From an uncultured Dehalococcoidaceae bacterium (GTDB lineage: Bacteria > Chloroflexota > Dehalococcoidia > UBA2979): DNA of 64,000 bases. The notes beneath the pieces are model-generated. The model was not told the origin of the DNA. It searched no databases and saw only the letters and a program-made list of their open reading frames with translations. The stretch is from positions 9,386 through 73,385 of the forward strand of contig CAYZJO010000013.1 of the NCBI GenBank assembly GCA_964479165.1, in the 5' to 3' direction. Below are positions 2,746 to 21,311 of this stretch, one piece after another. Position numbers and translations under genes: made by a program. Each line of letters starts with the position of its first letter. Position 1 is the first letter of the stretch.

Positions 2746-5700
2746 CTATGCCTGGTAGAAGGCGCCGCTGAGGTACTGCTTCATCAGATCGGACTCGTAG
2801 CCCGCGCGGACTCCGTTCCGCGCGGGCGCCCAGAGGCCGCCCTCGGGCGCGCCGTCCTCGGCTCGCTCGAGCTTGATGAACGACTCCTTCGGCGCGCCGT
2901 TCGCGCAGTGGACGTCGCTCTCGAAGCCCTTGCCAAGTTCCTGGCCGAAGAACGGCTTGCGGACGAGGGTGTCGGTGAGCAGCGTGGGCCGAAGCCACGC
3001 GCGCACGCCGCTCTGATGGCTGCCGTGGCGGAACATCGCCTGGTACCCGGTCTCGGGCGTCTTCGCGAGTCCGTCCGCTCGCTCGAGGGCGCCGCGCACC
3101 GAGCCGCGCGTGGCGACGTACATGTTGTAGTACATGCGGATCACGCCGGGCTGCATCGCGTTCTGGTAGCGGGCGCGAGCCATGCCCCGAGAGACGAGGT
3201 AGTCCTCGTCACCCTCCTTCCAGCCTCGGTACGGGCGGTCGGACGGGTCCGCGTCGAACCAGACGTAGTCGCCGTCGTCGATCCCGAGGGCCTGTCCGTC
3301 CTCCGGGCTCAGCTCGAGGTACGCCTCGCCGACCCAGGGCGTCCGTTTGTCGTGCCGGTAGGCGTCGCCGAAGGGGCCGAAGAGCATGCTCATCCAGTCG
3401 AGGTCGACGGGCGTGCTGTGCGCGCCGTGGCGGTACTTTGGCGTCATGAAGAGGAAGCGGAACCGATCGTCCGCCGCGGTCAGCGGGTGAACGGTCCCCT
3501 TCAAGTCGGACCACGCCTTCACGACGTTACGGATCTGCCGCACCTCTGTGGAGAGGTCGTCGAGTGACAGTCCGTACTCGAGAGGTCCCGCCGGCGCGAT
3601 CAGCGGATGTGGCCGGCCGTGGATCACGTTCGGCTCGTAGAACGTCGAGTCGACCGGCTCCCGGAAGACAGGGAGGTTCTCGCCGTACTCGAGGAACTCC
3701 GGCTCGTCGCGATAGAACTCGAGCCGTCCCGAGCGGTTGTACCAGGGCTTGCTCTCCTGCCGCTGCTCCCAGCCGCCGTGGCGCGGGTAGGTGCGGAAGT
3801 TCATGAGGGCAGGGATGCCCTGCTGCGCCCGTTGCTCGAGTTCGAGCACGTCGTATCCGCGCGTGGTGCTCGACGCCGAGAAGATGCGCTGGAGGTACAC
3901 CTCGTCGCGGCCATCGAGGAGGAACCTCCAGTAGTCCCGGAAGCGCGACTCTCCTGTGTGCTCAGCGAGCTTCTCCGAGATGCCCGCCATGACCTCGGCA
4001 TCCCCGCGCGTGTCGTAGATGCGGTCCAGCGGACTCCGCGGCGCCATGTGCAGGAACGAGTTCGTGCACGACCCGGTCGCGTCGAGGTTCTTCCGTTCGC
4101 CCCAGGAGTCGACGCCGAAGACGATGTCGGCGTACTCGCACGACGCGGTCCACCACCACTCGTTGACAAAGATCGCCTCGATGCCGGGCAGCGTGTTGTG
4201 CACCACGTCGTGGTGCCACTTCGCGTTGCCGAGCAGCGAGTTGGAGTTGCCGAAGAGCATCGCCTTCGTCGGCGTCGGCATGTGTGTCTCGCCGGTGAAG
4301 TTCTTTGTGCCGCCTCGCAACGGCCGGTCCCCGTAGTTGTAGAAGTGCGCTGACTCGCCCTTGTAGTACGACCCGATAGCCGCGGGCTGCGTCGGGTCGA
4401 GCTGGGGATTGAACGGGTCTTCTTTGATCCACTGCGGGATGCCGTTGAAGATCGAGCCGCGGTAGTTGCCCGCGTAGGCCCCGACGTTCCCTCCGATGTG
4501 GCCCACATTGTCGGTCAGCGCTGCCAGCAGGAAGATCGCGCGATCCTTGAGGTCGGCGTTGAAGTAGTGGTTCGGCCCCATCCCCGTGGCGAGCAGCGAC
4601 TTCCCTCTCGCCGCGGCGATCTGCTTCGCGAGGCTCTCGATAGCTGCGGGCGGCGCCCATGTCACCTCGGAGGTCGTCGCGAGATCGAAGTTCTCGTCAA
4701 GGTAGCGTTTGACCTGGCCGAATACGGGCTGCACGGAGACCTGCGAGCCGTCCAGAAGCGTGACTGCGAACTCCCCCTCCAGTGCCGGTTCAACGCCGGT
4801 CTCACGGAAGCGGTCACCCACCTGGTCGCGGGTCACCGGGACGGCCTCACTCGTCCGCTCGTCCCAGACCATGAAGTCGCCCCACTCGGCGCGGAGCGAC
4901 TCGGACACATACTGCGTTCCCTGCAGTGCAGGCGCCGGTAGCCGTGTGCCACCGGGAACGACCTGTACGAAGTTGTCGAGCGGAGCAGGTTCGTAGTCTT
5001 CGACCACGTCGCGCGCGTTCAGGAGCTGGTGCGTGTCCATGCGCACGAGGAGCGGTAGGTCGGTCCACGCCTTGATGTGGTCTTCGTCGTGGAGGCCGTT
5101 CGCGAGGATGTATTGCGCGCAGCCGAGGGCCAGCGCCGCGTCGGTCCCCGGCCGGATCATGATGACCTCGTCGGAGCGGTTGGATGTCGACTGGTAGTCC
5201 GTGGAGACGTTGATGATGCGCGTGCCCTTCTGACGCGCCTCGGAGAGCCAGTGGCCGTCCGGCATCTTCGTGGAGATCCAGTTCATCCCGAAGGTCACGA
5301 CCAGGTCGGCGTACTCCGGCGCGAAGAGGTCGAACTCCACCGTTTGATGCCCGGTCACCATCGGGTGTCCGGGCGGCAGGTCGGTGTGCCACGTGTATGA
5401 GTCCCACCCGCGACCGCCGAGCGCCTCGTCGGGGCCGACACCCCGGATGTGGTCATCCAGCAGCCCGAGCATGTTGGCGAAGCGGTAGAAGCTGTAGATG
5501 CGGTAGATGCCGAGGAGCGGCATGCCGCCTCGCACCTTGATGACCTGCGTCCCCGCCTCGTGCGCTGCCTCCACCATCGCGGGGTCGTACCCCTGCGCTG
5601 TGAGCCGCGCGGCGCCCTCCGCGCCCGAGTATGTGCGCGCGATATCGAGGTAGGTGCGCGCCGCGAGGTCGAAGGCCTCGTCCCAGGGGATCTTCACCCA

Positions 5701-6225
5701 CGTGTCGCGCCCGCGCCTCTCCATGTCCTGCAATGGCTTCCCAGTCGCCTCATCGCGGGGGAACCCGGCGTCCGCCCACTCCCTGAACCCGGCGCGCACC
5801 ATCGCCCCACGGACACGCCGGTCGCCGTAGAACTTGCGAGCGAGCGCGAGTCCCTTCTGGCAACCCCTCGGATCCCAGCGGTGTGACGCCTTGTTGCCGT
5901 GGAGGTCGGTGGCCTCGCCGTAGCCATACGTTGGGCTGATGCGCACCACGACGCCGTTCTTCACGTGCGCACGCAGGAGGCAGTTGTGCGTGTCGTTTGG
6001 CGCGCAGGTGAACACGTAGTCGGAGTCCGGCGTGAACAGGTCCCGGTATGCCTGCTCCCAATCGCGGTCCGGGAAAATGGTGAACGGGTCCGTGATCGCG
6101 ACAGGCTGACTGGCCTCGAGATGCCACGGATCGAAGACGAAGACCTCCGAGAGGGCTACGCCCACCCCCGCGGCGGCAGCGCGCCGCAGGAACGAACGCC
6201 GGGAGATGCTGCGTTTCTGCTCCAT
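2746..6225 (-). CDS. Molybdopterin catalytic alpha subunit, Tat-exported, NarG/NxrA-like type II DMSO-reductase family, 1159 aa.
   Basis: True start MEQKRSISRRSFLRRAAAAGVGVALS has a twin-arginine motif. The ORF-track start at 6492 is an upstream in-frame extension. The N-terminal cluster region CAPNDTHNCLLRAHVKNG aligns with the NarG FS0 / VKNG region. The size is near that of NarG (1247 aa). It is followed by the beta, gamma and delta genes. Confidence 0.85.
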   Translation of the reverse strand: MEQKRSISRRSFLRRAAAAGVGVALSEVFVFDPWHLEASQPVAITDPFTIFPDRDWEQAYRDLFTPDSDYVFTCAPNDTHNCLLRAHVKNGVVVRISPTYGYGEATDLHGNKASHRWDPRGCQKGLALARKFYGDRRVRGAMVRAGFREWADAGFPRDEATGKPLQDMERRGRDTWVKIPWDEAFDLAARTYLDIARTYSGAEGAARLTAQGYDPAMVEAAHEAGTQVIKVRGGMPLLGIYRIYSFYRFANMLGLLDDHIRGVGPDEALGGRGWDSYTWHTDLPPGHPMVTGHQTVEFDLFAPEYADLVVTFGMNWISTKMPDGHWLSEARQKGTRIINVSTDYQSTSNRSDEVIMIRPGTDAALALGCAQYILANGLHDEDHIKAWTDLPLLVRMDTHQLLNARDVVEDYEPAPLDNFVQVVPGGTRLPAPALQGTQYVSESLRAEWGDFMVWDERTSEAVPVTRDQVGDRFRETGVEPALEGEFAVTLLDGSQVSVQPVFGQVKRYLDENFDLATTSEVTWAPPAAIESLAKQIAAARGKSLLATGMGPNHYFNADLKDRAIFLLAALTDNVGHIGGNVGAYAGNYRGSIFNGIPQWIKEDPFNPQLDPTQPAAIGSYYKGESAHFYNYGDRPLRGGTKNFTGETHMPTPTKAMLFGNSNSLLGNAKWHHDVVHNTLPGIEAIFVNEWWWTASCEYADIVFGVDSWGERKNLDATGSCTNSFLHMAPRSPLDRIYDTRGDAEVMAGISEKLAEHTGESRFRDYWRFLLDGRDEVYLQRIFSASSTTRGYDVLELEQRAQQGIPALMNFRTYPRHGGWEQRQESKPWYNRSGRLEFYRDEPEFLEYGENLPVFREPVDSTFYEPNVIHGRPHPLIAPAGPLEYGLSLDDLSTEVRQIRNVVKAWSDLKGTVHPLTAADDRFRFLFMTPKYRHGAHSTPVDLDWMSMLFGPFGDAYRHDKRTPWVGEAYLELSPEDGQALGIDDGDYVWFDADPSDRPYRGWKEGDEDYLVSRGMARARYQNAMQPGVIRMYYNMYVATRGSVRGALERADGLAKTPETGYQAMFRHGSHQSGVRAWLRPTLLTDTLVRKPFFGQELGKGFESDVHCANGAPKESFIKLERAEDGAPEGGLWAPARNGVRAGYESDLMKQYLSGAFYQA

Positions 6226-6472
6226 TGCAACCTCACTCGCTCGAACGTCGCGGGCCGCGTGAGGCCGCTCGTTCGTGTGCGCACGTTCACATGAATTCTC
6301 GATCCGGGGCGTTACTCCAGCCGTTACAGAGCCCCGTTCCCACAGTCCCGCCAACCGGGGGACAAACGGCCCTATCTGGGCGTCCGACACCGGAACAGGA
6401 TCAGGGCGATCACGGCCCGTAATCGCGACGAGCGGGGGAGTCGTGGGAGTCGAACGCCTCGTAGACGGAGCG
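6226..6472. promoter_or_regulatory. Divergent intergenic region between the molybdoenzyme operon and the PAS-SARP regulator. It probably holds divergent promoters and operator sites.
   Basis: About 250 bp of non-coding DNA between two divergently oriented starts. No specific motif was identified. Confidence 0.3.
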
Positions 6473-7594
6473 ATGGGGCCTGCGTTCGCCATCGACAGTT
6501 GCGGCCGTGTCGTCGCAGCGAACGCTGCGGTGGGCGAGTTGCTGGGAGCGCACGCGCGCGACCTCGTGGGTCAGCGGTGCAGCGACATCTCGGGCGCGGC
6601 GGACGCCGCCGGGGAGCGCCTCTGCCAGCCCGAGGGGTGCTCCACGCTCGCGTTGCTGGCTTCCGGACGCCCGACTGACCTCCCCTGGTGCTCCTGGATC
6701 CATCCGGATGGCACGCACCTACCGATCTCCGCGACCGCCCTGGCACTCCCTCTCGAGGCACGATCCGACAGCACCGCCGCCGTCATCCTCCTCCACGTCG
6801 GGCCGGGGCCCCTCGACCGGAGACCGGCCGGCCTCCGTGCCGGAGAGCGCGCGATCCGCATCAGCCTCTTCGACAATCCTGCGTGCACCGTGGATGGTGC
6901 GCCGGTTCAACTCCCGCGCCGCCGCGCGCTCGAGGTGCTCGCGCTTCTCGCGTTCGCTCCCGCTGCGGGACTTCACAAGGAACAGATGTGCGACGCGCTC
7001 TGGGCGGAACTGCCAGGGGGCAGCGAGCGAATGCACCTCCGTGTCCTGCTGCACAGCCTCCGGCGATCGCTCGCTTCAGAAGTCATCATCAAGACGCCCC
7101 AGAACCCCGATCGGCTGCAGCTCGCCCCCCGGATCCAAGTTGATGTCCTCGAGTTCACGCAGGGTGTGAGTGCCCTGCGTGCTTCGTTGCTGTCGCCTAC
7201 GACAAGCGTGGCCGAACGACTCGAGCGGGTCGACGCGCTGCTCGCGCTCTACGTCGGCGACCTCGACGATGCCGGCGTCTTCGGTGCGTGGGTCGCGCCG
7301 CACCGCGAGCGCCTCCGCTCGCATTACATCGAGCTCCTTCGGGAGGCGACCCGGCTTGCCGCGGAAGCCCGCGAACCGGACCGAGCGATGGCCTACTGCC
7401 GGCGCGCCGTAGCCGCGGACCCGCTGCACGAAGAGTTCCAGATCGCGCTGATCGCCGCCTACGGGCAGCTCGGGCTGCGTCGAGCTGCGCTCACGCAGTA
7501 CCAGTCCTATCGAAAGGCGCTCACCGCGGATCTCGCGCTCGAACCGTCGATGGCGGTAGAGCGAGCTCTGGGCCTCGCTCTGAGAGCGAGCTGA
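6473..7594 (+). CDS. Transcriptional regulator with an N-terminal PAS-like sensor, an OmpR/SARP-type winged helix and a C-terminal BTAD domain (AfsR/SARP-like).
   Basis: ATG at 6473 (GTG at 6443 is also possible). The PAS-like segment is MGPAFAIDSCGRVVAANAAVGELLG. The winged-helix segment is RISLFDNPACTVDGAPVQLPRRRALEVLALLA. The BTAD-like tail is ALLALYVGDL...EEFQIALIAAYGQLGLRRAALTQYQSYRKALTADLALEPS. The ORF-track N-terminus from 6275 is probably spurious. Confidence 0.6.
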   Translation: MGPAFAIDSCGRVVAANAAVGELLGAHARDLVGQRCSDISGAADAAGERLCQPEGCSTLALLASGRPTDLPWCSWIHPDGTHLPISATALALPLEARSDSTAAVILLHVGPGPLDRRPAGLRAGERAIRISLFDNPACTVDGAPVQLPRRRALEVLALLAFAPAAGLHKEQMCDALWAELPGGSERMHLRVLLHSLRRSLASEVIIKTPQNPDRLQLAPRIQVDVLEFTQGVSALRASLLSPTTSVAERLERVDALLALYVGDLDDAGVFGAWVAPHRERLRSHYIELLREATRLAAEAREPDRAMAYCRRAVAADPLHEEFQIALIAAYGQLGLRRAALTQYQSYRKALTADLALEPSMAVERALGLALRAS

Positions 7595-7607
7595 AGGGAC
7601 ACGCCCG

Positions 7608-8279
7608 ATGACCGCCGGACCCGTACATCCCGCGATCGAGCGCGCGTGCGCCGCCAGCGCCGCGCAGCACAAGCGACTTTGCCCCCGCCAGGTGCTCGGG
7701 GTGCGGATGGGAATCGCCGCCGGACGCGCACTCGACCTCTCGCTCCCCCGCGAAGACAAGCGTCTGCTCCTCTTCGCCGAGACGGACGGTTGCGTCCTCG
7801 ACGGGATCACCGCGGCTACCGGCTGTACGCCCGGACATCGCACGATGCGCGTGGTCGACTACGGACGGGTCGCCGTGACCGGCATCGACCTGGAGACGCG
7901 GCGCGCCGTCCGCGTGGCACCCCGCGCTGGAATCCGGGAATTGGCCACTGCGTACGCTACCGACGGGGCCTCGCGATACGACGCGCAGCTCGTCAGCTAT
8001 CAGCAGGTGCCGGAGCCGCTCCTTCTGACCATCACCCCGGTCCGTCTCACCCTCGACGTCGACGCGCTGCTGGGGCGTCCTGGTGTGCGTGTCGACTGTG
8101 CGCGATGCGGCGAGGAAGTGCTCAACGGCCGCGAGGTGGAAGTCGATGGCGACCTGGTGTGTCCCGGGTGCAGCGGCGCCGCGTACTACGATCCTTGCGG
8201 ACCTCTGGGCGTGTCAGAGATTGGGGCGTCAAGGACCCTAGGAGCGAGCGAGGGATGGTCTCGATGGCTCACGAGGTGA
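7608..8279 (+). CDS. FmdE/FwdE-family protein with a C-terminal zinc ribbon.
   Basis: HKRLCPRQVLGVRMG and ETDGCVLDGITAATGCTPG match FmdE-domain signatures. The C-terminus has CARCGEEV...CPGC. ATG at 7608. Confidence 0.6.
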   Translation: MTAGPVHPAIERACAASAAQHKRLCPRQVLGVRMGIAAGRALDLSLPREDKRLLLFAETDGCVLDGITAATGCTPGHRTMRVVDYGRVAVTGIDLETRRAVRVAPRAGIRELATAYATDGASRYDAQLVSYQQVPEPLLLTITPVRLTLDVDALLGRPGVRVDCARCGEEVLNGREVEVDGDLVCPGCSGAAYYDPCGPLGVSEIGASRTLGASEGWSRWLTR

Positions 8280-9145
8280 GTCCGGCGGTACCTCCAACCC
8301 GGCGCTACCCGCAAACCGGGGCGTTCGGGACAGGTCCGCCCGTGGGCGCCCCTTTCCCGGCCATGGCGCTGCCGGATCAGCACGGCGGCGCGATGCCGGT
8401 CAGTTGGGGACCGGGCGGACGCCCGACCTTGGTGGTGTTCCATCGGTCTGCACGTTGGTGCACGTTCTGCCGCACGCAGTTGCTCCACCTGCAGCATCAC
8501 CTGCGGGCGTTCGAGGCCGCCGGCGTTGCGCTCGTCGCCATCTCCTACGATCCTCCTGGAGCGCTGGCGGAGTTTGCGGCAGAGAACCGCATCACCTACC
8601 CCCTGCTCTCTGACGAGAGGTCGCAACTAATCTCCCGTCTCGGCATCCTGAACGACCTCGTCCGGCCAGACGAGGAGGTGTATGGCATCCCCTATCCCGG
8701 GGCCTACGCGGTCTCTTCAGAGGGTCGTGTATTGCGCAAGTATTTCTACCGCCACTACCGAGAACGGCCAGCGCCGCTCGGAGTGCTCCACGAGGCGTTC
8801 AACGCCAACGTCAGCCTCCACGCGTGCCTGGGTGCGGACCGACACGACGGCGATGTGTTGGTGAGCGCTCGCCTCGCCGACACCGCCCTCGTTCCATACC
8901 AGCACACACCGCTCTACGTACGCGTGACCGCTCCAGAGACTCGCAGTTTGGAAGTGACAGCCGAGGGGCTTGACGTCGGAGCGCCAGAGCCGTCGATCGT
9001 GCCTGGCGGTGCTGGGTGGAGGGTACCGCTCATGCTACGGAGCTTGGACCATGCGTCCGTAGTCCTGACGATGCGGACCACCGGAAGGGGCGCGGCCCCG
9101 CTCGATCTGAGGCTGCACTTGCCGGTCCTCGAGTTGAGGCGATAG
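8255..9145 (+). CDS. Thioredoxin-fold redoxin (AhpC/TSA or TlpA-like, WCTFC active site) with a C-terminal extension of about 120 aa.
   Basis: ATG at 8255 is preceded by GGAGCGAGCGAGGG. The motif PTLVVFHRSARWCTFCRTQLLHL is seen. It overlaps the FmdE gene end by 25 nt. The upstream part of the 499-aa track ORF (from 7646) is an out-of-frame artefact. Confidence 0.6.
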   Translation: MVSMAHEVSPAVPPTRRYPQTGAFGTGPPVGAPFPAMALPDQHGGAMPVSWGPGGRPTLVVFHRSARWCTFCRTQLLHLQHHLRAFEAAGVALVAISYDPPGALAEFAAENRITYPLLSDERSQLISRLGILNDLVRPDEEVYGIPYPGAYAVSSEGRVLRKYFYRHYRERPAPLGVLHEAFNANVSLHACLGADRHDGDVLVSARLADTALVPYQHTPLYVRVTAPETRSLEVTAEGLDVGAPEPSIVPGGAGWRVPLMLRSLDHASVVLTMRTTGRGAAPLDLRLHLPVLELRR

Positions 9146-9545
9146 TCGCCAGCAGCCCCCGATTGTGGAAGTCCAACGAGGGCCGAGCATCGGACGACGC
9201 GGCAGACGCGCGCGATCGGCTTTCCACCTTCGACCACGAGCCGGCACGCCGATGCGATCGTGAGTGCGCTTTGGTGGTCTTTGGGGACAGGAGCAGCCGT
9301 CCTGAACCAGATGATTGGTACCTGTCCAATCCTGCGTAGGGGTCTCCCAGCGCACACGCGAGCCGAGATGCAGTCCTCGATCTCCTTGGGGGTCAGGCTC
9401 CAGCGGTTCAACATGCGCTTTCCGCGAACGCGCGATCCGCCGGCAAGAGCTGCGCTCGACGCACGTGAAAAGCCCCGTGGCTGCGCCGCCGTCGGACGTC
9501 CACCGGAGCGAGCGAGGTGGCTTGGCAACCCGGAGCGCGTCGCTA

Positions 9546-9830
9546 GGCCAGCGGCAGGCGAACGGTGACCTGGAGACCGCCCAAGTCCGGAGCCGCTGCC
9601 TCCACCCTTCCGCCCCGGTTCTTCACGATCGCGGCAACGATGGCGAGGCCGAGGCCCGCGCCTCCGCGTCCGGGTTCGCGCCTCGCTGAGTTGCGCGAAG
9701 CGCTCGAAGATGCGTTGGGTCTCGGTGGGTGGGACGCCAGGACACGGCATGTTACGACGGCTCGTCAGGCGGAGACCTGCCATTGACGCTCCAGGAAGTC
9801 GCGCTCCCGGAGCATCCGGGAGGGGTGTGA
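9546..9830 (-). pseudogene. Remnant C-terminus of a sensor histidine kinase (HATPase_c), frameshifted.
   Basis: Reverse-strand frames give ...NMPCPGVPPTETQRIFERFAQLSEARTR in one frame and GAGLGLAIVAAIVKNRGGRVEAAAPDLGGLQVTVRLPLA-stop (stop at 9544-9546) in another. No intact upstream kinase body was found. Confidence 0.35.
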
Positions 9831-9987
9831 AGAGTCCTCCAAGACCAGCACTTGGTCCCGCCCTTGTCCCGCCCAAACCGCAGCACAACCCATGGTCAGA
9901 GGTGGCCTGCGGTGTCTCGTCAAAGGCAGATCGCCAGCAAATACAAGGGATTTCGCCACGCGCGACAACGCGCCGCCACGGTCGGTA

Positions 9988-10037
<50 letters not shown>

Positions 10038-10105
10038 TTTCCCCCCACCCCCTGTGGTCACCTGAGCGAGTCGACATCCTCGGCATCCGCCCGTTCATCG
10101 AGCGG

Positions 10106-10468
10106 CTAACCGCCTAGCTCGAATGCCTCTTCCGGAAGGAAGAGGCAGTGGTCGCAGGGCCGTACTCCACATCCGCGAACTCGATTGAGTCGGAGATTGA
10201 TCGTGAGCACCTCCGGCGCCACGGTCTGTTCCTGCACTCGTCGATACGCGTCCCTCGTCGCGCCTGTGGTGTTCTTGATCTCGACGCCGAACTTCGCCAA
10301 GTGATTTTGCACGAACTTAGTCGCCGTCTCGTCGATCTCCTGGAGTACCCCGTCGACACTCAGCAGCGCCGCGACTTCGATGCACACCTCTAGCAGAATT
10401 GCGTTGTCACCAGCCTGCTCCGCTCGATAGGCGTAGTACGCCTTCCCGACACCCTTGTGCGGTGCCAT
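10106..10468 (-). CDS. Hypothetical protein of 120 aa.
   Basis: ATG at 10468 (MAPHKGVGKAYYAYRAEQ...). This stretch has lower GC and protein-like composition. No recognisable domain. Confidence 0.4.
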   Translation of the reverse strand: MAPHKGVGKAYYAYRAEQAGDNAILLEVCIEVAALLSVDGVLQEIDETATKFVQNHLAKFGVEIKNTTGATRDAYRRVQEQTVAPEVLTINLRLNRVRGCGVRPCDHCLFLPEEAFELGG

Positions 10469-10538
10469 TAATCCATCCGGCACCCGTTTGACCTGATCCG
10501 AGTGGCGCTCGAACCTGCCGGAGCGGCGGGAGGGCTCG

Positions 10539-11570
10539 ATGCTGGTGGTCCTGAGATACATGCTGAGCGCCTGGGGAAAGGTCGCGCTCGAGCGACGTGA
10601 GCTGGTGCTCGAGAACATTGCGCTCCGTCACCAGCTTGAGGTGCTATCGCGGGCTCGCCGCCGAGCCGCCTTACAGCCAGCGGATCGCTACTTCTGGTCG
10701 TCGCTCGCACGGCTCTGGCCAGCCTGGAGAAAGCACCTGGTGATCGTCCAACCCGACACCGTCGTGCGCTGGCACCGCCTGGGCTGGCGACACTACTGGC
10801 GCTGGCGCAGTCGGTCGCCGAGGCGCGGCAGGCCACGGCTCGACGCCACGATCGCGGCTGAGATCCAACGGATGACTGCGGAGAACCCGCGCTGGGGACA
10901 CATGCGCGTACTCGGCGAGCTGCGCAAACTCGGATGCCGTGTCAGCCTGCAGACTGTCCGCCGCTACCGCAGGGACGTGCCGCGTGACCCGTCTCCCAGC
11001 TGGCGCACGTTCCTCGAAACCCACCGCCCAGAGATCTGGGCGTCCGACTTCTTTACGGTGCACACGCTCTGGTTCCAGACGCTCTACGTCTTCTTCTTCA
11101 TCGCGCACGACCGCCGCGCGGTGATGCACGTCAACGTCACGTCGCATCCGAACGCAACGTGGGTGTGGCGTCAGCTCATCAATGCGACGCCGTGGGGAGC
11201 GAGCCCACGCTTCCTGATCCGCGATCGAGACCGCTCGTACGGAGGGGAATTCGTTGCGCGTGCCCAGCGTATCGGCATCCAGACAGTGCTCACGCCGATC
11301 GCGACGCCGCAGGCCAACGCTATCGCCGAACGGCTGGTTGGCACGTTCCGGCGCGAATGCCTGGACCACATCATCGTCGTGAACGAGCAGCACCTGCGCC
11401 ATGTGCTCCGCGAGTTCGTCCGCCACTACAACACCGCACGCCCACACCGGGCGTTGGTACTGGAGGCTCCCGAACCGAAAACGGGTCCACGCGTCGACGA
11501 GTCAGGCCCAATCATCAGCCGTCCCGTACTCGGTGGATTGACCCACGAGTACGAGCGAACAGCGGCCTGA
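10539..11570 (+). CDS. DDE transposase with an rve integrase core and an N-terminal LENIALRHQLEVL / RWHRLGW / ENPRWGHMRVLGELRKLG region (IS481/IS3-superfamily-like).
   Basis: 343 aa. The catalytic region reads HTLWFQTLYVFFFIAHDRRAVMHVNVTSHP...IRDRDRSYGGEF...TPQANAIAERLVGTFRRECLD. The element ends are not resolved. Confidence 0.85.
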   Translation: MLVVLRYMLSAWGKVALERRELVLENIALRHQLEVLSRARRRAALQPADRYFWSSLARLWPAWRKHLVIVQPDTVVRWHRLGWRHYWRWRSRSPRRGRPRLDATIAAEIQRMTAENPRWGHMRVLGELRKLGCRVSLQTVRRYRRDVPRDPSPSWRTFLETHRPEIWASDFFTVHTLWFQTLYVFFFIAHDRRAVMHVNVTSHPNATWVWRQLINATPWGASPRFLIRDRDRSYGGEFVARAQRIGIQTVLTPIATPQANAIAERLVGTFRRECLDHIIVVNEQHLRHVLREFVRHYNTARPHRALVLEAPEPKTGPRVDESGPIISRPVLGGLTHEYERTAA

Positions 11571-12907: not shown

Positions 12908-13046
12908 CGCCCCCTCCTCTACGGAGTACTTCCGAGCGGCGTGAGAGACGCCCGGAAATGGATCGTACGGATGGCGTCAGATCGATACCGGACGACGCTC
13001 GTGGCTCTGCGCCGTGCGTCCCGACTTCGGGCAGAGCGCCAGCGGC

Positions 13047-14028
13047 TCATCCATCCTCCCGCACGACTTCGCGCGGGTCCTTGTCGGGTCGCAGCCCTTT
13101 GAACGAGGGATGGCGCAGCTGCCCGGTGCGCGAGGTCCACTCGGCGAACTCGACGTCGCACACGAGTCGCGGCTTGACGAAGCGCGATTCGCGCGGCACC
13201 TCGCCACCAGCGAACGGGCTCGTCTCGCGCGCGGGGCGGGCCCAGCAACGCTTCGAGCTCGCCGAGTGTGCGCTCGCTGAAGCCCGTCCCGACCTTGCCG
13301 GCCGAGACGAGGTGATCCCCGTCGTAGGTCCCGATCACGAGCGCGCCGATCTTGCCCGAGCGCGTGCCTTCGCCGGGCACCCAGCCGCCAATGACGAACT
13401 CCTGGCGTTGCTGGTTCTTGATCTTGAGCCAGGTACCGGAGCGCTTTCCCGGCTCGTAGCGGCTGGTGAGCCGCTTCGCGATCACGCCCTCCATGCGTTG
13501 CTCGCGACTCGTCGCCAGGATGAGATCGCCGCCGCCCTCCGACTGTGGCGGCGTGTGCCAGTGCGAGCCGTCGAGTTCGAGCGCCTCGAGCACGGCGCGA
13601 CGTTCGGCGTAGGGCTCGGCGAGGAGCGAGCGCCCGTCGAGCGCGAGCACGTCGAAGATCATGTAGGCGATCCCGACGCCAGGATCGGCTGTGACACGCT
13701 TACCGCCCTCGAGTCCCATGCGCTGATGCAACGCCTCGAACGTCGGTCGCCCGCTCGCGTCGAAGCCCACAATCTCGCCGTCGAGGAGCGCGCTGTGCGC
13801 GCCGAGAGCCGCCGCGAGCGCGCGCAGCTCGGGGTAGCGCCCCGTCATGTCGAGGCGGTTGCGACTGGCGAGGGAGAGTGCGCCACGCTCGATCCGGGCG
13901 ACCGCGCGGATGCCGTCCCACTTGAACTCAAAGCCCCAGCGCCCATCGTCGCGCGGCAACTCCGGCACCGAGCTTCGCGAGCATCGGCACGAGCGGCCGC
14001 GGCTGCGCGGGATCTCCCCGGCGAGCAT
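13047..14028 (-). pseudogene. ATP-dependent DNA ligase (LigC/LigD ligase-domain type) with an apparent 1-nt frameshift near 13215-13235.
   Basis: Start MLAGEIPRS at 14028. Motifs are FEFKWDGIRA (KxDG), EGVIAK and LKIKN. Frame 1 ends ...GELEALLGPPRARDEPVRWW and then becomes Arg-rich nonsense down to 12919. The next frame reads SPFAGGEVPRESRFVKPRLVCDVEFAEWTSRTGQLRHPSFKGLRPDKDPREVVREDG-stop (stop at 13047-13049), which is the canonical ligase OB-fold C-terminus. Confidence 0.6.
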
Positions 14029-14573
14029 TAGGTGGTGGGGCTGGGTTGTCTCGCACAAGCTGATCGTAAGGTCTGCTCGGCGGGAGGCGGTCGTGCTACC
14101 GTCGCCCCCCGGTCGCCTGCGGCCCTGCACAGCAACAGTCCTGCGGGCGGCCGGGACGACGGCGGGATAGACGTGCGCGACGCCGGTGGGGCGTTGTGCA
14201 GCGATGAACCGGACGGCGAGGTTGTAGTGAACGCGCCGCATTACACCCCTGCCGAGGTCGAGTCACTCGCTGCGGCGCTCATGCTCCTGCGCGCCATGGT
14301 CGACGCGGAGACGGGGGGCACTGCTCGAGGGTGCTGCACAGGCGCTCCGGCAGCAGGCCGCGCGGATCGCGACGCTCGAGCGAGTCACGCCTCAATGAAC
14401 GAATGGCAGCGCCTGCAACGGATTGCGGACAACGCGCAGCTCGAGGCGCAGTCGGCACGACGTGGCATCCGCAACGTCTTCCTCTTCGGCCTTGCCTTTT
14501 GGACCACGATCGCCGCGATCCTGGTCGCCGTATGCCGCTGACCCCTCGGAGCTAGGGACCAACCGCCTCCAAA

Positions 14574-14825
14574 GTGGTCTACATGACGTGGCGCCGCGAC
14601 TTCGACCCCTCCGCCAGGCGCGCGGTGGATCTGCGCACGCTGCGGCTGATGGCGTGGCTGCAGAAGCAGGACCGTTACCGCGCGGAGCGTCCGAAGCTCG
14701 AGCGCGGCCACAGGCGGAAGGCTGACATCGTCACGGTCACCTGGTACTTCGAGGCTGCCGACTGGCGAGAAGCGGACAGAGCCGTGCGAGAGATTGAGGA
14801 GCGCCGTGACGCGCCGCGAGGGTAG
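14574..14825 (+). CDS. Hypothetical protein of 83 aa.
   Basis: MVYMTWRRDFDPSARRAVDLRTLRLMAWLQKQDRYRAERPKLERGHRRKADIVTVTWYFEAADW... is protein-like. There is no domain call. Confidence 0.3.
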   Translation: MVYMTWRRDFDPSARRAVDLRTLRLMAWLQKQDRYRAERPKLERGHRRKADIVTVTWYFEAADWREADRAVREIEERRDAPRG

Positions 14826-14834
14826 ACTCGCCAC

Positions 14835-15146
14835 ATGCGCGGGCGGTTCACTCTGACGGACGACAATCGCGAGCGCGTCGCCGCGAGGCTCGGAGTTCCG
14901 GCGGACCAGCTGATCGAGGAGGACTACCGGCCGCGCTGGAACGTTGCGCCCACCGACCCGCGCACTGGATCGTGCGCATCCGCTACGAGGATCGCGAGGC
15001 GCGGGCGGCGAGGTGGGGCTTGGTCCAGTTCGGCTCGAAGGACCCGAAGCGCGCAGCAGCGCAGATCAACGCGCGCGCGGAGGCGAGTTGGCATCCCCGA
15101 CGAACACTAGCCCGCCTGGCTTGTATCGCGCGGGCCACTATCGCTT
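14835..15146 (+). pseudogene. SOS-response-associated peptidase (SRAP/YedK) remnant with a Cys2-to-Arg change, a frameshift and truncation.
   Basis: MRGRFTLTDDNRERVAARLGVPADQLIEEDYRPRWNVAPTDP in frame 1, where canonical SRAP starts MCGRF. HWIVRIRYEDREARAARWGLVQFGSKDPKRAAAQINARAEASW follows in the +2 frame from about 14960, then a stop near 15146. About half of a normal SRAP is present. Confidence 0.5.
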
Positions 15147-15545
15147 GATGGCTCGACGCGCCGATAGATCCTCGTGGGCGGTGGACCGCCGCCAAAGCAC
15201 CAGCAGCCCAATGATGATCAACCAGACCGCGACACGGGACGTCATCGCAAGCATGCTCTCCCTTGCCGGCACGCCCACGACGGTCGAAACCAGGAGCAGC
15301 AAGACGCTCACGTGGACACAGAGCGTCCCAACGGACACCAGGACCGCGAAGCGACTCCTGCTCCAGATCAACACGGTGGGGACGAGGACCGTCCAAAGGC
15401 CGATGGCGAGGTTGTAGATCGGGAGCCATGACAGCACCGTGTATCCCGGCTGCCATCCCTGTGCGGCGCTAGTACCGGCGACGACCGACATTGCCCCAAT
15501 CATCAGGGCGAGCAGGGCGGCCGCTCCACGCGCAAATGTATCCAT
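15138..15545 (-). CDS. Integral membrane protein with four predicted TM helices.
   Basis: 135 aa with hydrophobic helices (LLALMIGAMSVVAG, LAIGLWTVLVPTVLIW, AVLVSVGTLCVHVSVLLLLVSTVVGV, VAVWLIIIGLLVLW). Confidence 0.5.
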   Translation of the reverse strand: MDTFARGAAALLALMIGAMSVVAGTSAAQGWQPGYTVLSWLPIYNLAIGLWTVLVPTVLIWSRSRFAVLVSVGTLCVHVSVLLLLVSTVVGVPARESMLAMTSRVAVWLIIIGLLVLWRRSTAHEDLSARRAIKR

Positions 15546-15632
15546 CGTGTGCCTCTATGTCCGCGGAGACTAGATCGGTTCGCCCTGATCTGCTGAAGAC
15601 GTTTCGCGAGGCTCGGCGGCCAACTAGCCAAG

Positions 15633-16028
15633 TCAGGCGGGTGTGGTGTCGACACGCCCGCGGGGCTCAATGCCGCTCGGGCGCGCGGCCCAGACCAGCA
15701 GGACGCCCAACGCGGCTTGCGCGACCTTGCCTCCGAGGCTCAGCGCGTCGACTGTCCCCGTCCCTCGAACTGCCGACAGTAGGAAGAGGACGAGTACCAC
15801 GGCGTTTACGACCGCACCCAGCAGGAGCAGGCGACGGCCGACGAAGGGAATGGAAATACCCCCGGCGATGTAGGCGAGCCCTGCCGCAAACATGACCGGT
15901 CGCGGGGGGGACTTGAAGTCGTCTGGGACGAAGCCCATGGCGATCGCCAGGTACACCACGCCTGCCGTGACGGCGAAGACTGTGGCGAGGAGCAATACGG
16001 GCTTCGACGTGACAGTTGGACCGTTCAT
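15633..16028 (-). CDS. Integral membrane protein with three to four predicted TM helices.
   Basis: 131 aa: VLLLATVFAVTAGVVYLAIAMGF, MFAAGLAYIAGGISIPFVG, LLLLGAVVNAVVLVLFLLSAV. Confidence 0.5.
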   Translation of the reverse strand: MNGPTVTSKPVLLLATVFAVTAGVVYLAIAMGFVPDDFKSPPRPVMFAAGLAYIAGGISIPFVGRRLLLLGAVVNAVVLVLFLLSAVRGTGTVDALSLGGKVAQAALGVLLVWAARPSGIEPRGRVDTTPA

Positions 16029-16072
16029 CTCAACCTCCTCGAGCGTGGCTCAAGTGGAGCGTCCGCCGATAG

Positions 16073-18256
16073 TCACGGGCGTGAATGCATTGGTGCTGCT
16101 TGGGGGTCACTTGGACCTTCGATCGAAATGCGCGGCAGGCGCCGCTCCAGCCACGAGGGCAACCACCAGTTCCAGTCGCCCATGAGCTCCATCGTCGCCG
16201 GCACCAGCAGCAGTCGCACGACCGTCGCATCGACCAACACGGCGATCGCGAGCCCGAGCCCGAACTCCTTCACGACGCGCTGATCGTTCATCACAAAGCT
16301 CAGAAACACCATGATCATGATCGCTGCCGCCGCCGTGATGACGCTCGCGGTTGCAGCCAACCCGCGTGCGACTGACTTCGCGTTATCACGCGATGCCAGG
16401 TACTCCTCGCGAATCCGGCTCACGAGGAAGACCTCGTAGTCCATGGAGAGGCCGAAGAGCACCGCAAAGAGCATCATCGGCAGGAACGACTCGACCGGAG
16501 CGGACTGGTCGACGCCGACGAAGCGCATCCCCCAGCCCCACTGGAACACCGCCACCACGAACCCGTACGCCGCCCCGATCGAGAGCAGGTTCATTAACGC
16601 CGCCTTCAGCGGGATCAGCAGCGAGCGGAAGACCGCCACCAGCAGGAGGAAGCTCACCCCAATCACGAGGCCGAAGAACAGCGGCAGCCGGGAAGCGATC
16701 CGATCCGCGATGTCAATCGCCCGTGCGGTCGCACCTCCCACGTAGACGCGGGCGTCCGTGTCCGCAGCGTCGAGGGCCGCCGGGAAGACCTGGTCGCGCA
16801 GCTCATGCACCAGGTCCGCGGTCTCGCCTGACTGCGGCGATGTCGCGGGGACCACCGAAAACACGCTGACGTCCCCGGCCGGACCGGCCAACGGTGCGCT
16901 CACCGAGGCCACGTTCGGCAGGCTCGCGATCGCGTCGCGCACCTGTGCCGCTTCCGGCTGCGAGGCACCCTCGATCACGACCTGTAGGGGCCCGTTCATA
17001 CCGGGGCCAAAGGCATCCGCCAGGATGTCGTACGCGCGTCGGGTCGTGGAGCTCGTCGGATTGTTCCCGGCGTCCGCTGTGCCGAGGCGCATGTCGAGCA
17101 CCGGGACGCTCAGCGCCGCCAGAATCGTCACGCTCACGCCAAAGAAGACGTAGGGCCGGCGCATGATCGCCAGCCCGAGTGCGTACCAGCGACTCTGCTC
17201 GTGCGCAACTGCGGGCCGCCTCGAGCCGCGTGGTCCGCCAGAACCCGCGATCCGCGGGCCAATAATGCCCAGGAGCGCCGGCAGCAGCGTCAGCGCCGCC
17301 AGCACAGCGACGGCGACCATCGCGGCAGCGGCGACGCCGAGCCAGCCAACGAAGGGGATCCCCATCAGGCCCAGCCCGAGAAGCGATGTGATCACCACCC
17401 CGCCCGCGAATGCGACAGACTTCCCCGCCGTCGCGAGCGCCGCGCCCACGGCCGCGGCGATGTCGCGCCCCATGAGGACGTTCTCGCGATGGCGCGCCAC
17501 GATGAACAGCGCGTAGTCGATGCCGACGCCCAGCCCGAGCATCGCCGCGATGTTGGGCGCGAACTTGCTGAGGTCGATTGCGGCCGTCATCGCGAAGATC
17601 ACCGCGAACCCGACCGCGAGGCCCGACACCGCGCTCACCACCGGCAGTACCGTGGGCATGAGCGCTCGGAACAACACGTAGAGGATGAGAAGCGCGGCCA
17701 TCAGGCCGAGGACGGTCGACTCGTTCGGCCCCTCGCGCTCCAGTGCCGCCGGGACCGGACCACCGAGCTCGACCGTTAGCGCACTCGAGCGGGCGGCCCC
17801 GGCGAGCCCCTCGAGCGCCTCGGTGGCCTCGGCCGGGACATCGTCGGCGCCCTGCGCGAACTGCACGCGCATCAGCGCCACGGTGCGATCAGCCGACACG
17901 ATCGCGTTTGGCTGTGCGAACGGCGAAGCCACGCCGACGACCCCAGGGAGGGACGCGACGTCACGCGCAAGCGTCTCGATCGCGGTCCGCGTCTCGTCCG
18001 TGTCGATACCACCCGCGGCTTCGAAGATCACATCGGCGTAGTCGCCCGAGCGCTGCGGGAACGAGCGCTGCAGCACCTCGACCGCCCGCTGCGACTCGGC
18101 GCCGGGGATGGTGAGTGTGTTCGCCGTGCCCACCGAAATCGATCGCGCGGTGAGGCCGAGTGCCGCACCGGCCACAAGCCAGACCGCGACGACCTGCCAG
18201 CGGTACCGGACTGCGCTGCGGCCCCAGCGTTCGAGGAGACTCGCGCTATCGTGCAT
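16073..18256 (-). CDS. MMPL-family RND transporter (MmpL-like).
   Basis: About 727 aa from ATG at 18256 (MHDSASLLERWGRS...; RBS GGAGGAA). Two blocks of multi-TM domains with large periplasmic loops. This architecture is typical of MmpL. Confidence 0.85.
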   Translation of the reverse strand: MHDSASLLERWGRSAVRYRWQVVAVWLVAGAALGLTARSISVGTANTLTIPGAESQRAVEVLQRSFPQRSGDYADVIFEAAGGIDTDETRTAIETLARDVASLPGVVGVASPFAQPNAIVSADRTVALMRVQFAQGADDVPAEATEALEGLAGAARSSALTVELGGPVPAALEREGPNESTVLGLMAALLILYVLFRALMPTVLPVVSAVSGLAVGFAVIFAMTAAIDLSKFAPNIAAMLGLGVGIDYALFIVARHRENVLMGRDIAAAVGAALATAGKSVAFAGGVVITSLLGLGLMGIPFVGWLGVAAAAMVAVAVLAALTLLPALLGIIGPRIAGSGGPRGSRRPAVAHEQSRWYALGLAIMRRPYVFFGVSVTILAALSVPVLDMRLGTADAGNNPTSSTTRRAYDILADAFGPGMNGPLQVVIEGASQPEAAQVRDAIASLPNVASVSAPLAGPAGDVSVFSVVPATSPQSGETADLVHELRDQVFPAALDAADTDARVYVGGATARAIDIADRIASRLPLFFGLVIGVSFLLLVAVFRSLLIPLKAALMNLLSIGAAYGFVVAVFQWGWGMRFVGVDQSAPVESFLPMMLFAVLFGLSMDYEVFLVSRIREEYLASRDNAKSVARGLAATASVITAAAAIMIMVFLSFVMNDQRVVKEFGLGLAIAVLVDATVVRLLLVPATMELMGDWNWWLPSWLERRLPRISIEGPSDPQAAPMHSRP

Positions 18257-18376
18257 CTGTTCCTCCATACGATGCACCCAGCATCGGTGGAGCGGTCTGC
18301 GGCGTCGCCGACTTTTGTCGGCTTGCGTCCCACGCGCTGTCCCATCGGAAGCGAGGCGCCTCGAAATGATCCGCTC

Positions 18377-19063
18377 GTGACCACCCATCAGCATCCGGAG
18401 CGTGACCTCGTTGAGCGGCTGGCGATGGTCCCGCTCTTCTCCGGCCTTCCGCCCGAGTTCCTGCGGCTGCTCGCTGAAGCCGCCATCGCTCGTGACTACG
18501 AGGCCGACCAGGTCGTGTTCGTCGAAGGCGAGTCCTCGCCCGGGCTGTTCGTGATCGAGTGGGGACATATGAAAGTGGTGAAGGCTTCGCCGCAGGGCCG
18601 CGAGCACATCCTCGAGGTGCTGGGGCCTTCTCAGCCGGCGAACGCAGTCGCTGTCCTCACGAGCCGCCCGAGCCCCGCGACGGCGATCGCGCTTGAGCCC
18701 ACGCGGACGTGGCTCCTACCGCGGGGGGCGGTGGCCCAGCTCCTGCGCGATCACCCCGCGTTCGCCGCCAGCCTGATCGAGGACATGGCCAACCACATGG
18801 TCCACCTCGTCGACCTCGTCGCCGACCTCTCGCTGCGATCGGTCATGGAGCGCCTTGCCAAGCTCCTCCTCGAGGAGGCTATCGATGGCGTCCTGGTGCG
18901 TCCCCGCTGGCTAACGCTTCCCGAGCTCGCCGCACGGCTCGGCACCGTGCCCGACGTGGTGCAGCGCGCCCTCGGCCGGCTGGCCGCCGACGGCGTCGTC
19001 GAAATCGATCGCCGCGAAGTCCGCATTCGGGACCGGCGGAGGCTCCAAAAGCTCGCGGGCTGA
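18377..19063 (+). CDS. Crp/Fnr-family transcriptional regulator (cNMP-binding domain plus C-terminal HTH).
   Basis: GTG at 18377 gives a 228-aa protein. It reads MVPLFSGLPPEFLRLLAEAAIARDYEADQVVFVEGESSPGLFVIEWGHMKV...RSVMERLAKLLLEEA...LTLPELAARLGTVPDVVQRALGRLAADGVVEI. It is transcribed divergently from the MmpL gene. Confidence 0.8.
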   Translation: MTTHQHPERDLVERLAMVPLFSGLPPEFLRLLAEAAIARDYEADQVVFVEGESSPGLFVIEWGHMKVVKASPQGREHILEVLGPSQPANAVAVLTSRPSPATAIALEPTRTWLLPRGAVAQLLRDHPAFAASLIEDMANHMVHLVDLVADLSLRSVMERLAKLLLEEAIDGVLVRPRWLTLPELAARLGTVPDVVQRALGRLAADGVVEIDRREVRIRDRRRLQKLAG

Positions 19064-21005: not shown

Positions 21006-21311
21006 TCTGACCTCCATGCAGGGCGTGTCTCGGTTTGCAGCTAGATGGTGACAGGTTGCCCGGTCACACGATGTTGCGATAGCGGCGCCGTAAACGGCCC
21101 CGCGCCCGACACGTTCTTCCGGAGCGTGACGCTGCCTCACGGTCGACGAAGTGCGCAGGTGCTCTGGCTGCGATCGGTCCCATGAGCATTGCCATAGCCG
21201 AGGATGCGCTAGATCAAGATCAGCGACTCGGCGCAGTCCGCCGGATCAGCCAGCGAAGTGCGTCCTGGGTGCCTCATCCAAGCGCCTCAGGTCGGGGACG
21301 ACGGAGGGCAC

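Follow-up and report, generated by a model that had tools for sequence, protein, structure and literature searches.

A PAS-SARP regulator and an FmdE-family protein as a probable accessory unit of a periplasmic NXR-type operon in Dehalococcoidia-like Chloroflexota

Periplasmic-type nitrite oxidoreductase (NXR) holds a central place in the nitrogen cycle. To our knowledge, little has been learned about its transcriptional control, the NXR-like enzymes of Chloroflexota are known only from metagenomes, and neither a PAS-SARP gene nor an fmdE gene has been reported for NXR clusters of the Kuenenia stuttgartiensis/Nitrospira type. Here we analyse a stretch of 64,000 nucleotides (the window; contig CAYZJO010000013.1 of assembly GCA_964479165.1, from an uncultured Dehalococcoidaceae bacterium) in which a four-gene molybdoenzyme operon on the minus strand lies head-to-head with three plus-strand genes, encoding a PAS-SARP regulator, an FmdE-family protein and a redoxin, in surroundings of 62–70% GC content. 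The operon shares with the Kuenenia/Nitrospira-type clusters homologues of NxrA, NxrB and NxrC, a twin-arginine translocation (Tat) signal, the 3Cys/1Asp ligation of the FS0 cluster, the substrate Asn and the Mo-ligand Asp (PMC8387239), whereas NXR-T, found in those clusters, is missing here. Our reading, to which we give a probability of about 0.65, is that the regulator gene and fmdE constitute a conserved accessory unit of a periplasmic NXR-type nxrABCD operon in a small Dehalococcoidia-like clade of Chloroflexota, and that the regulator activates this operon through GTAACG repeats.

The regulator is to be compared, first, with the SARP activators, such as AfsR (SARP domain, PDB 8HVR and 8K60), EmbR (2FEZ and 2FF4), ActII-ORF4 and DnrI, with which it shares an OmpR-type winged helix plus a BTAD domain. 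The known members have either no sensor or C-terminal NOD/TPR or FHA domains, whereas the present one carries an N-terminal PAS domain with three cysteines; its host is a member of the Chloroflexota and not an actinomycete, and its predicted target is a respiratory molybdoenzyme together with cofactor genes instead of a secondary-metabolite cluster. Secondly, NreB of staphylococci is a cysteine-rich PAS oxygen sensor histidine kinase, in which four cysteines bind a [4Fe-4S] cluster and which controls nitrate/nitrite respiration. The likeness, one of description only, is that of a conserved-cysteine PAS sensor upstream of N-oxide respiration genes; unlike NreB, the present protein appears to be a one-component activator of the DNA-binding type, with three invariant cysteines (C-x14-C-x4-C). 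At SARP promoters, direct repeats with an 11-bp period replace the −35 element, the 3′ repeat being 8 bp from the −10 element (PMC10936776). The predicted target promoter described below resembles this layout, with tandem direct repeats where a −35 element would be expected, but they stand 9–10 bp from the −10-like hexamer, their core is GTAACG and not of the TCGAG type, and their period is 12 bp (sometimes 11 bp).

The FmdE/FwdE family (PF02663; PDB 2GVI, 3D00 and 2GLZ) provides the third comparison. The protein encoded behind the regulator shares with these structures the alpha+beta core, the His/Cys/Cys positions and a treble-clef zinc ribbon with four cysteines (PMC2954224), and the founding members of the family are likewise encoded beside a Mo/W-pterin enzyme. 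In contrast to these, the partner enzymes here are of the Nxr, Nar and Ttr-like kinds with no formylmethanofuran dehydrogenase genes nearby. The structural paper on the family, which assigns no function, describes a metal site of the His/His/Cys/Cys kind as well as fusions with a molybdopterin-binding domain (PMC2954224), and a later survey points out that the solved Fwd complex lacks FmdE (PMC11237513). The genes of dedicated maturation proteins (NarJ/TorD/DmsD, MobA/MobB, FdhD) also lie within or beside the operon whose enzyme they serve, but the FmdE fold is unrelated to the folds of these proteins; nor is FmdE a simple NarJ replacement, because a NarJ-like chaperone is already encoded in the nxr operon. 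The components (SARP, PAS, FmdE) are of known kinds. In the literature searched we found neither their combination, the cysteine-rich sensor, a respiratory target outside the actinomycetes nor the GTAACG box, and no general link between FmdE and enzymes carrying the molybdenum-bis-pyranopterin guanine dinucleotide cofactor (Mo-bisPGD).

The three plus-strand genes had been recognised in a first-pass annotation, made by a model from the letters alone, as encoding a PAS-SARP/BTAD regulator, an FmdE-like zinc-ribbon protein and a redoxin, head-to-head with a respiratory-type molybdoenzyme operon and possibly forming a dedicated module for it. The genes and their domains are real (BTAD 60.8, PAS_4 23.4, FmdE 84.9 and AhpC/TSA 77.4 bits), and an independent gene call on a 3.8-kb Logan contig of identical sequence agreed on all three genes and on their starts (383, 223 and 296 aa). 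The head-to-head arrangement is equally real, and the enzyme can now be specified as periplasmic NXR-type. Its alpha subunit (2746–6225, minus strand) is a periplasmic-type, NxrA-like Mo-bisPGD catalytic subunit of 1159 aa, whose N-terminus, MEQKRSISRRSFLRR, is a twin-arginine signal. Compared with phmmer, it matched K. stuttgartiensis NXR-A (PDB 7B04, chain 7b04_B) over the full length with an expect value (E) of 8.7e-268, and the runner-up matches were far weaker (perchlorate reductase, 2e-46; NarG and EbdA, about 1e-31). The FS0 ligands C-x2-N-D-x3-C...C (3Cys/1Asp), the substrate-facing Asn and the Mo-ligand Asp are all kept, the roles of these residues being taken from the NXR structure paper (PMC8387239).

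The other three genes of the operon, all on the minus strand, encode a NarH/NxrB-like iron-sulfur protein (beta, 1570–2700; Pfam Fer4_11, 103 bits), an NxrC-like EB_dh haem-b protein with a TAT-like signal (gamma, 618–1532; Pfam EB_dh, 78.7 bits) and an nxrD-like chaperone of the NarJ/TorD family (delta, 2–616). The 3′ part of the delta gene lies past the start of the window; it was recognised by tblastn with the Nitrate_red_del proteins of two of the loci listed below, L082 (82% identity) and L007 (61%). No NCBIfam model was at or above its cutoff for any protein of the locus, the top matches of beta and gamma being DMSO_red_II_bet and DMSO_red_II_gam, both below cutoff. Judged by the alpha residues, together with the NarH-like beta subunit, the EB_dh haem-b gamma subunit with its signal peptide and the NarJ-like delta protein, the enzyme is a periplasmic-type nitrite oxidoreductase/nitrate reductase, NxrABC with a NarJ-like chaperone, which may oxidise nitrite or reduce nitrate. 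Homologues at 58–72% identity occur widely among uncultured Chloroflexota, Rokubacteria, Armatimonadetes and other groups.

The regulator and fmdE were found near nxr in 10 further loci (L002, L007, L035, L082, L083, L084, L085, L090, L091 and L092), with identities to the window of 80–93% for alpha, 35–65% for the regulator and 54–72% for FmdE. The gene order, with nxrA divergent from the regulator-fmdE pair, is kept in 9 of these 10, and in L092 ctaA sits between fmdE and nxrA. Each member of the regulator family with readable context lies close to nxrA together with fmdE, and fmdE starts about 10–110 nt 3′ of the regulator gene in all 11 NXR loci (10–25 nt in most). More distantly related nxr operons were also inspected. 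As far as gene content tells, the regulator is specific to one clade and FmdE extends somewhat further, because L086 (alpha 69% identical) has a MobB-FmdE fusion divergent from nxrA without any regulator, and L087 and L088 (alpha 66–67%) have neither regulator nor FmdE. The latter two carry extra iron-sulfur (FeS) and NrfD genes instead: nxrD is followed (14391–17221) by the gene of an FeS protein (Ferredoxin_N), that of an NrfD-type membrane protein and an open reading frame of 66 aa, a membrane anchor different from that of the window clade.

When the orthologous spacers between nxrA and the regulator gene were aligned (mean column identity 54%), a direct repeat was among the few invariant blocks. 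This tandem repeat, GTAACG-N6-GTAACG on the sense strand of nxrA (6310–6327, minus strand), is a candidate PAS-SARP binding site; it is invariant in the 11 loci and recurs elsewhere, and in the 64-kb window the pair is unique even with one mismatch allowed. It is followed after 9–10 nt by a −10-like hexamer of the predicted nxrA promoter (GAGAAT, 6295–6300, minus strand), which reads NANNAT in 11 of 11 loci (GAGAAT, CAGAAT, CAAAAT, CACAAT, CATCAT, GATGAT or GAACAT) within a region of 68% GC, and then, 3–11 nt on, by a palindrome; transcription is predicted to start near 6288. This layout of the candidate site and predicted start resembles that of SARP-dependent promoters. A search for TCGAGxx-like SARP heptads at about 11-nt spacing had been suggested at first pass. 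Repeats do indeed lie upstream of nxrA, but with the GTAACG motif at a 12-nt period, and heptads of the TCGAGxx type at 11-nt spacing are not present. Consensus scans of 6000–9600 for sigma-70 promoters and intrinsic terminators found nothing, and a search for repeats in the single sequence of 6150–6550 returned only chance-level repeats and missed the hexamer pair, which was revealed only by aligning the orthologous spacers.

The distribution of the GTAACG box follows that of the regulator. It was not found upstream of nxrA in L086, L087 and L088, the three nxr loci without regulator. In L092 the regulator gene does not adjoin nxrA, yet box, hexamer and palindrome are kept upstream of nxrA. 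In L002, L083 and L090 two facing GTAACG boxes lie in the spacer that separates a nifX-like/mobB-fmdE operon from a ctaA/radical-SAM operon. On its own side each box has, at a distance of 9 nt, a TAGNTT or NACGCT hexamer, TAGNTT being the −10-like hexamer on the ctaA side. L089, in which the regulator is only 39% identical, has GTAACG-N5-GTAACG-N9-TAGTCT in front of the regulator gene, pointing at a divergent mobB-like gene. An orientation of the repeats toward the regulator gene (autoregulation) was considered and rejected, because no −10-like hexamer is present on the regulator side, because the ctaA and nifX boxes face each other, each beside its own gene, and because the box of L092 stays with nxrA though the regulator gene has moved. 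Extra GTAACG-N5-GTAACG repeats were seen just 3′ of fmdE in L084 (2398–2414, minus strand) and L085 (5845–5861, plus strand), antisense toward its 3′ end and without a −10-like hexamer; that of L084 is followed by a possible small open reading frame with a Shine-Dalgarno sequence.

The ctaA operon of L002 (5199–10049, plus strand) comprises ctaA, two radical-SAM/SPASM genes and nnrS, preceded by a GTAACG box. Elsewhere ctaA is the gene after nxrD (L007 and L091) or is divergent from nxrA (L092). Given these positions beside nxr and the GTAACG box, haem a synthesis appears to be linked to this NXR.

The repeats might instead be bound by another factor, the PAS-SARP protein regulating other targets or itself, for example through a GTCCC...GGGAC element. 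Such an explanation could draw on this second conserved element (6345–6363), which is closer to the regulator gene, and on a Crp-family gene 12 kb away. We consider it quite improbable: the box co-occurs strictly with the regulator, as it was seen in L089 and in all 11 loci that have the gene but not before nxrA in the three regulator-less nxr loci, and tandem repeats 9–10 nt before a −10 element with no −35 element are what a SARP dimer uses (PMC10936776). It could also be argued that the adjacency is coincidental, passed down within one clade and functionally unconnected with the enzyme, as the NXR loci having the pair are all fairly close relatives (alpha at least 80% identical). This is very improbable, since the cis-element is invariant while identity falls to 35% in the regulator and to about 54% in the spacer, since the arrangement survives the rearrangement in L092, and since FmdE is associated with molybdoenzymes across classes and phyla.

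The architecture of the regulator (6443–7594, plus strand; 383 aa) was established from profiles and structure prediction. In Pfam, BTAD (PF03704) reaches 60.8 bits (cutoff 22.1), PAS_4 barely exceeds its cutoff (23.4 against 23.1) and Trans_reg_C remains under it (17.4 against 26.2), while precomputed PF00486 matches exist for several homologues; NCBIfam gave a weak SARP match below threshold. An AlphaFold2 model built from 11 homologues has a mean predicted local distance difference test score (pLDDT) of 83. With Foldseek, it aligned to EmbR and to the AfsR SARP domain in transcription-initiation complexes over about 250–260 residues (E 1e-11), the template modelling score (TM) with the AfsR domain being 0.76; by the domain layout of the model this match is the C-terminal two-thirds, and the helical repeats superpose on AfsR/EmbR. 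The N-terminal 120 or so residues match many PAS domains (PYP, DosP, HIF2a) at TM 0.6–0.7, and phmmer with residues 1–126 retrieved multi-PAS proteins. Both the PAS and the BTAD assignments of the first pass are thus upheld by Pfam and by AlphaFold2/Foldseek, and the architecture of PAS, winged helix and BTAD is real. With regard to the start codon, all homologue alignments begin at residue 1 of the form starting at GTG 6443. This start is therefore likelier than ATG 6473, and the spacer, first given as 6226–6472, is more likely 6226–6442.

The regulator family is small. A word-indexed search among 5.8 billion clusters yielded 11 full-length clusters at 42–67% identity, an exhaustive HMMER search with the PAS part only added about 20 clusters of the same architecture (376–411 aa, 24–44% identity), and a narrower alignment scanned against metagenomes gave three loci. 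A SARP-like gene after fmdE in L030 was rejected as a family member because it has no PAS domain. Across 21 aligned sequences only C46, C61 and C66 (C-x14-C-x4-C) are invariant in the PAS part, C83 and H118 being kept within the narrow clade only. The first-pass annotation had asked whether the PAS pocket points to haem or flavin. It points to neither, as no haem CxxCH/His and no flavin (LOV Cys) signature was found in the sequence of the PAS part, the hallmark of which is the three invariant cysteines. Most economically, these cysteines would ligate a metal or an Fe-S centre, or would act as a thiol switch.

Two further elements of the spacer may contribute to control. The first is a palindrome, TGTGC-N6-TCACA (TGTGCGCACGTTCACA, 6276–6291), beginning in the window 3 nt past the −10-like hexamer of nxrA. 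It resembles both the Rex operator (TTGTGAA-N4-TTCACAA) and the CRP/FNR-type consensus (TGTGA-N6-TCACA). It occupies an equivalent position in 11 of 11 NXR loci, with no more than one mismatch, in the general form (T/C)GTGA-N6-TCAC(A/G), with one half-site degenerate in several of them. In the regulator-containing clade it overlaps the predicted transcription start, which would be a repressor-like position. In the regulator-less L087 (7894) and L088 (7896) a perfect TGTGA-N6-TCACA precedes nxrA. Its centre is about 41 nt before the start that a −10-like hexamer implies (CATGAT in L087, TATAGT in L088), which is the class II CRP/FNR position, and L087 has a Crp-family gene nearby. The window itself encodes a Crp/Fnr-family regulator (18251–19063, plus strand; cNMP_binding and HTH_Crp_2), 29% identical to the L087 Crp and a candidate binder of the palindrome.

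The second is the inverted repeat or hairpin GTCCC-N9-GGGAC (6345–6363), seen in the intergenic alignment and followed by a conserved ...CCCT. In most loci it lies 58–81 nt upstream of the regulator start, and inner pairs of its stem covary (C-G in L002, T-A in L090); it was not found upstream of the regulator in L092. It is possibly a structure in the 5′ RNA, or an operator.

The FmdE-family gene (7608–8279, plus strand) begins 13 nt 3′ of the regulator gene. Its product matches Pfam FmdE (PF02663) with 84.9 bits against a cutoff of 22.9 and 2gvi_A with E 1.4e-7. The invariant residues are H21, C25, C62, C164, C167, C185 and C188, the last four forming a C-terminal treble-clef zinc finger (with a weak zf-dskA_traR match). 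In the HxHxC metal motif, the second His of the solved structures (2GVI/2GLZ) is R23 in the window and Arg or Ser in 11 of 11 NXR-linked members, while it is kept in all 17 Ttr-linked and in 9 of 14 Nar-linked members, a pattern confounded with phylogeny. A neighbour-joining tree of FmdE was rejected as evidence on enzyme specificity: the NXR-linked members group together, inseparably from organismal phylogeny.

To see the wider context of this clade, the best 80 of at least about 560 loci, with one genome per GTDB species, were surveyed. They are mostly from Chloroflexota, with a few from Acidobacteriota, at 46–67% identity. A Mo-bisPGD catalytic subunit of at least 500 aa is encoded in 42 of the 80. 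When only loci with at least 8 kb of upstream sequence are counted, such an enzyme is present in 37 of 54, in 32 of them within 5 kb, and in 34 surveyed loci the enzyme gene is upstream of fmdE on the same strand. The commonest order is FeS-NrfD-TtrA-like-FmdE (17 loci), where genes for a histidine kinase, a LuxR-type response regulator and a PhnD-type binding protein are often close by; 14 loci have cytochrome c-NarGHJI, then transporters, then FmdE, and three are of the NXR type. No fmd/fwd catalytic genes were seen beside fmdE, the neighbours being nxrABCD (window) or Ttr-like/Nar operons. MobA or MoaA genes occur in nine loci, in several directly after fmdE (L024, L037, L045 and L056). Furthermore, MobB-FmdE fusions of 323–350 aa occur in four NXR contexts, all on the minus strand (L002, 3731–5079; L083, 4511–5856; L090, 2017–3320; L086, 6745–7797); in three loci the fusion is paired with a small Nitro_FeMo-Co (NifX/NifB-C-like) protein, and in L086 it is directly divergent from nxrA. 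The earlier remark that FmdE proteins often accompany molybdoenzymes is strongly supported by this synteny, by the fusions and by the neighbouring mobA/moaA genes. Because its members lie beside Mo-bisPGD enzymes and next to mobA/moaA, and are fused to MobB, the clade most likely assists in cofactor handling or in the maturation of Mo-bisPGD catalytic subunits.

Some recurrent neighbours of fmdE were of other kinds. A CMD-family protein of about 105 aa with a HAH motif is encoded in 12 loci (L005, L023, L027, L043, L055–L057, L059, L063, L065, L077 and L078), adjoining fmdE in most; having no CxxC, it was rejected as a recurrent thiol-redox partner in support of a role for the redoxin. In L005, L043, L047 and L073 a gene for a 740-aa B12-binding radical-SAM/TPR protein is directly upstream of fmdE, with a cytochrome c gene of about 125 aa in between in three of them (not L047); three of these four loci have no adjoining molybdoenzyme gene.

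A different role has to be weighed here, namely that FmdE is a zinc-ribbon partner of the SARP regulator, a metal- or ligand-binding co-sensor or modulator, and not a maturation factor. The constant position of fmdE right behind the regulator gene in the 11 NXR loci would fit this, as would the proposal of a regulatory or metal-sensing zinc finger in the structural-genomics paper (PMC2954224) and the FmdE-transcription regulator fusions in Methanosaeta (PMC11237513). Against this, members of the same clade (47–67% identical) stand directly behind Ttr-like/Nar operons without any SARP gene, FmdE adjoins mobA/moaA and is fused to MobB, and the fusion in L086 lies beside nxrA with no regulator at all. 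Such a role therefore seems improbable, and assistance in cofactor handling or maturation is preferred.

Several points weigh against regulator and fmdE as a functional unit of the NXR. The 11 NXR loci all belong to one narrow clade (alpha 80–93% identical), so that part of the synteny is shared ancestry. As nxr operons at 66–69% alpha identity have no regulator, and those at 66–67% have no FmdE either, neither is essential for the enzyme type. The repeat period (12 bp, 11 at some sites) and the motif are unlike those of actinomycete SARP boxes, the transcription start is only predicted, and a different regulator could bind the GTAACG repeats. As for FmdE, one of the four metal ligands of the solved structures is replaced in the NXR-linked clade, about one-third of the well-flanked loci are without a molybdoenzyme within 10 kb, and the literature gives the family no biochemical function (PMC2954224).

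The third gene (8255–9145, plus strand) encodes an AhpC/TSA-fold, thioredoxin-like redoxin (PF00578, 77.4 bits against a cutoff of 26) with a beta-rich C-terminal extension of about 140 aa. Its active site, FHRSARWCTFC, has the Trx/ResA-like WCxxC, and the peroxiredoxin motif PxxxT/SxxC was not found there, there being no Pro at −7 and no Thr/Ser at −3; thiol-disulfide redoxin is thus the better name. The top NCBIfam match, 'SelL-related redox protein', was below threshold. The 25-nt overlap with fmdE noted at first pass (8255–8279) was seen again, and it arises from an atypical C-terminal extension of about 20 residues in the window FmdE.

The redoxin might be a true third component, keeping the cysteines of FmdE and/or of the PAS domain reduced, or relaying sulfur or electrons. 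The overlap implies co-transcription and translational coupling in this genome, and orthologues of about 290 aa lie within 1.5–7 kb of the module in two loci of different gene order: the L085 orthologue (54% identity) lies past nxrD at a distance of 7 kb, and that of L092 (45%), encoded on the opposite strand beside two Rrf2-family genes, 1.5 kb upstream of the regulator. The gene is thereby near the module in three of the seven loci with enough flanking sequence, and because of this recurrence a functional tie is possible. On the other hand, no redoxin gene follows fmdE in any other locus examined, and the flanks available for L007, L091, L002 and the nearest relative, L082 (alpha 93%), yielded no orthologue, the short AhpC-TSA gene of L082 being just 24% identical. 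No GTAACG box precedes the redoxin gene. In addition, the region 9146–10538 holds no confident gene and is followed by an insertion sequence (IS)-type integrase (rve_3, HTH_32; 10539–11570); the atypical 3′ extension of fmdE and this IS element suggest a recent rearrangement with its breakpoint just after the redoxin gene. A role as third component is thus unlikely, and the redoxin is most likely a loosely linked, recent juxtaposition. Consequently, of the three-gene module first proposed, the regulator-fmdE pair stands, conserved near nxrA in 10 further loci, and the redoxin does not, as it is absent from that position in every other locus. In L092 the redoxin orthologue adjoins (791–2718) two Rrf2-family regulators and a DtxR/FeoA-type iron repressor.

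Other genes of the window, for an ATP-dependent DNA ligase (12919–14241, minus strand), an MMPL transporter (16073–18607, minus strand) and CorA (21258–22292, plus strand), have no evident link to the module. No tRNA and no Rfam family was found within the whole window.

Taken together, the results suggest the following scheme. The regulator would sense a redox-type signal through its PAS domain, with the three invariant cysteines as possible Fe-S ligands or as a metal/thiol switch. In the manner of SARPs, we infer, it binds as a side-by-side dimer on the two GTAACG repeats, which may stand in for a −35 element 9–10 bp upstream of the −10-like hexamer of nxrA, so that binding would recruit RNA polymerase. 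In some genomes the same box may drive ctaA (haem a synthase, then two radical-SAM genes and nnrS) and the nifX-like/mobB-fmdE operon, so that the regulon would take in the cofactor supply as well as the enzyme. The CRP/Rex-like palindrome at the predicted transcription start would be a second, probably repressive input. FmdE, presumably co-transcribed with the regulator and belonging to a Chloroflexota-wide clade of apparently generic companions of Mo-bisPGD enzymes, most likely handles the cofactor (bis-molybdopterin guanine dinucleotide, bis-MGD, or a metal) or matures the catalytic subunit before Tat export. The redoxin, which appears translationally coupled to fmdE in this genome, is probably a recent and loosely linked addition. 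A bolder version of this scheme, which we put forward only tentatively, is that the FmdE clade is a general Mo-bisPGD maturation factor acting with MobA/MobB to deliver bis-MGD, metal or the FS0 cluster to NxrA, NarG and TtrA-type enzymes, and that the three-cysteine PAS-SARP protein is an Fe-S or thiol sensor of redox state, NO or O2 which directly activates the NXR regulon through the GTAACG repeats.

If this is true, the locus would offer a testable regulator-operator pair for NXR, consisting of an 18-bp box, a predicted −10 element and start, and three candidate sensing cysteines. Neither a respiratory regulon under SARP control nor a dedicated transcriptional switch of a periplasmic-type NXR would have been described before, and the mechanism of SARP activation would extend past actinomycete secondary metabolism into respiration. 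As for FmdE, its position behind three classes of Mo-bisPGD enzymes and by mobA/moaA, and its fusion to MobB, lead to a specific hypothesis that can be tested in vitro; if it is true, the FmdE/FwdE family, without a function since it was named in the fmd operons of methanogens, would at last have one.

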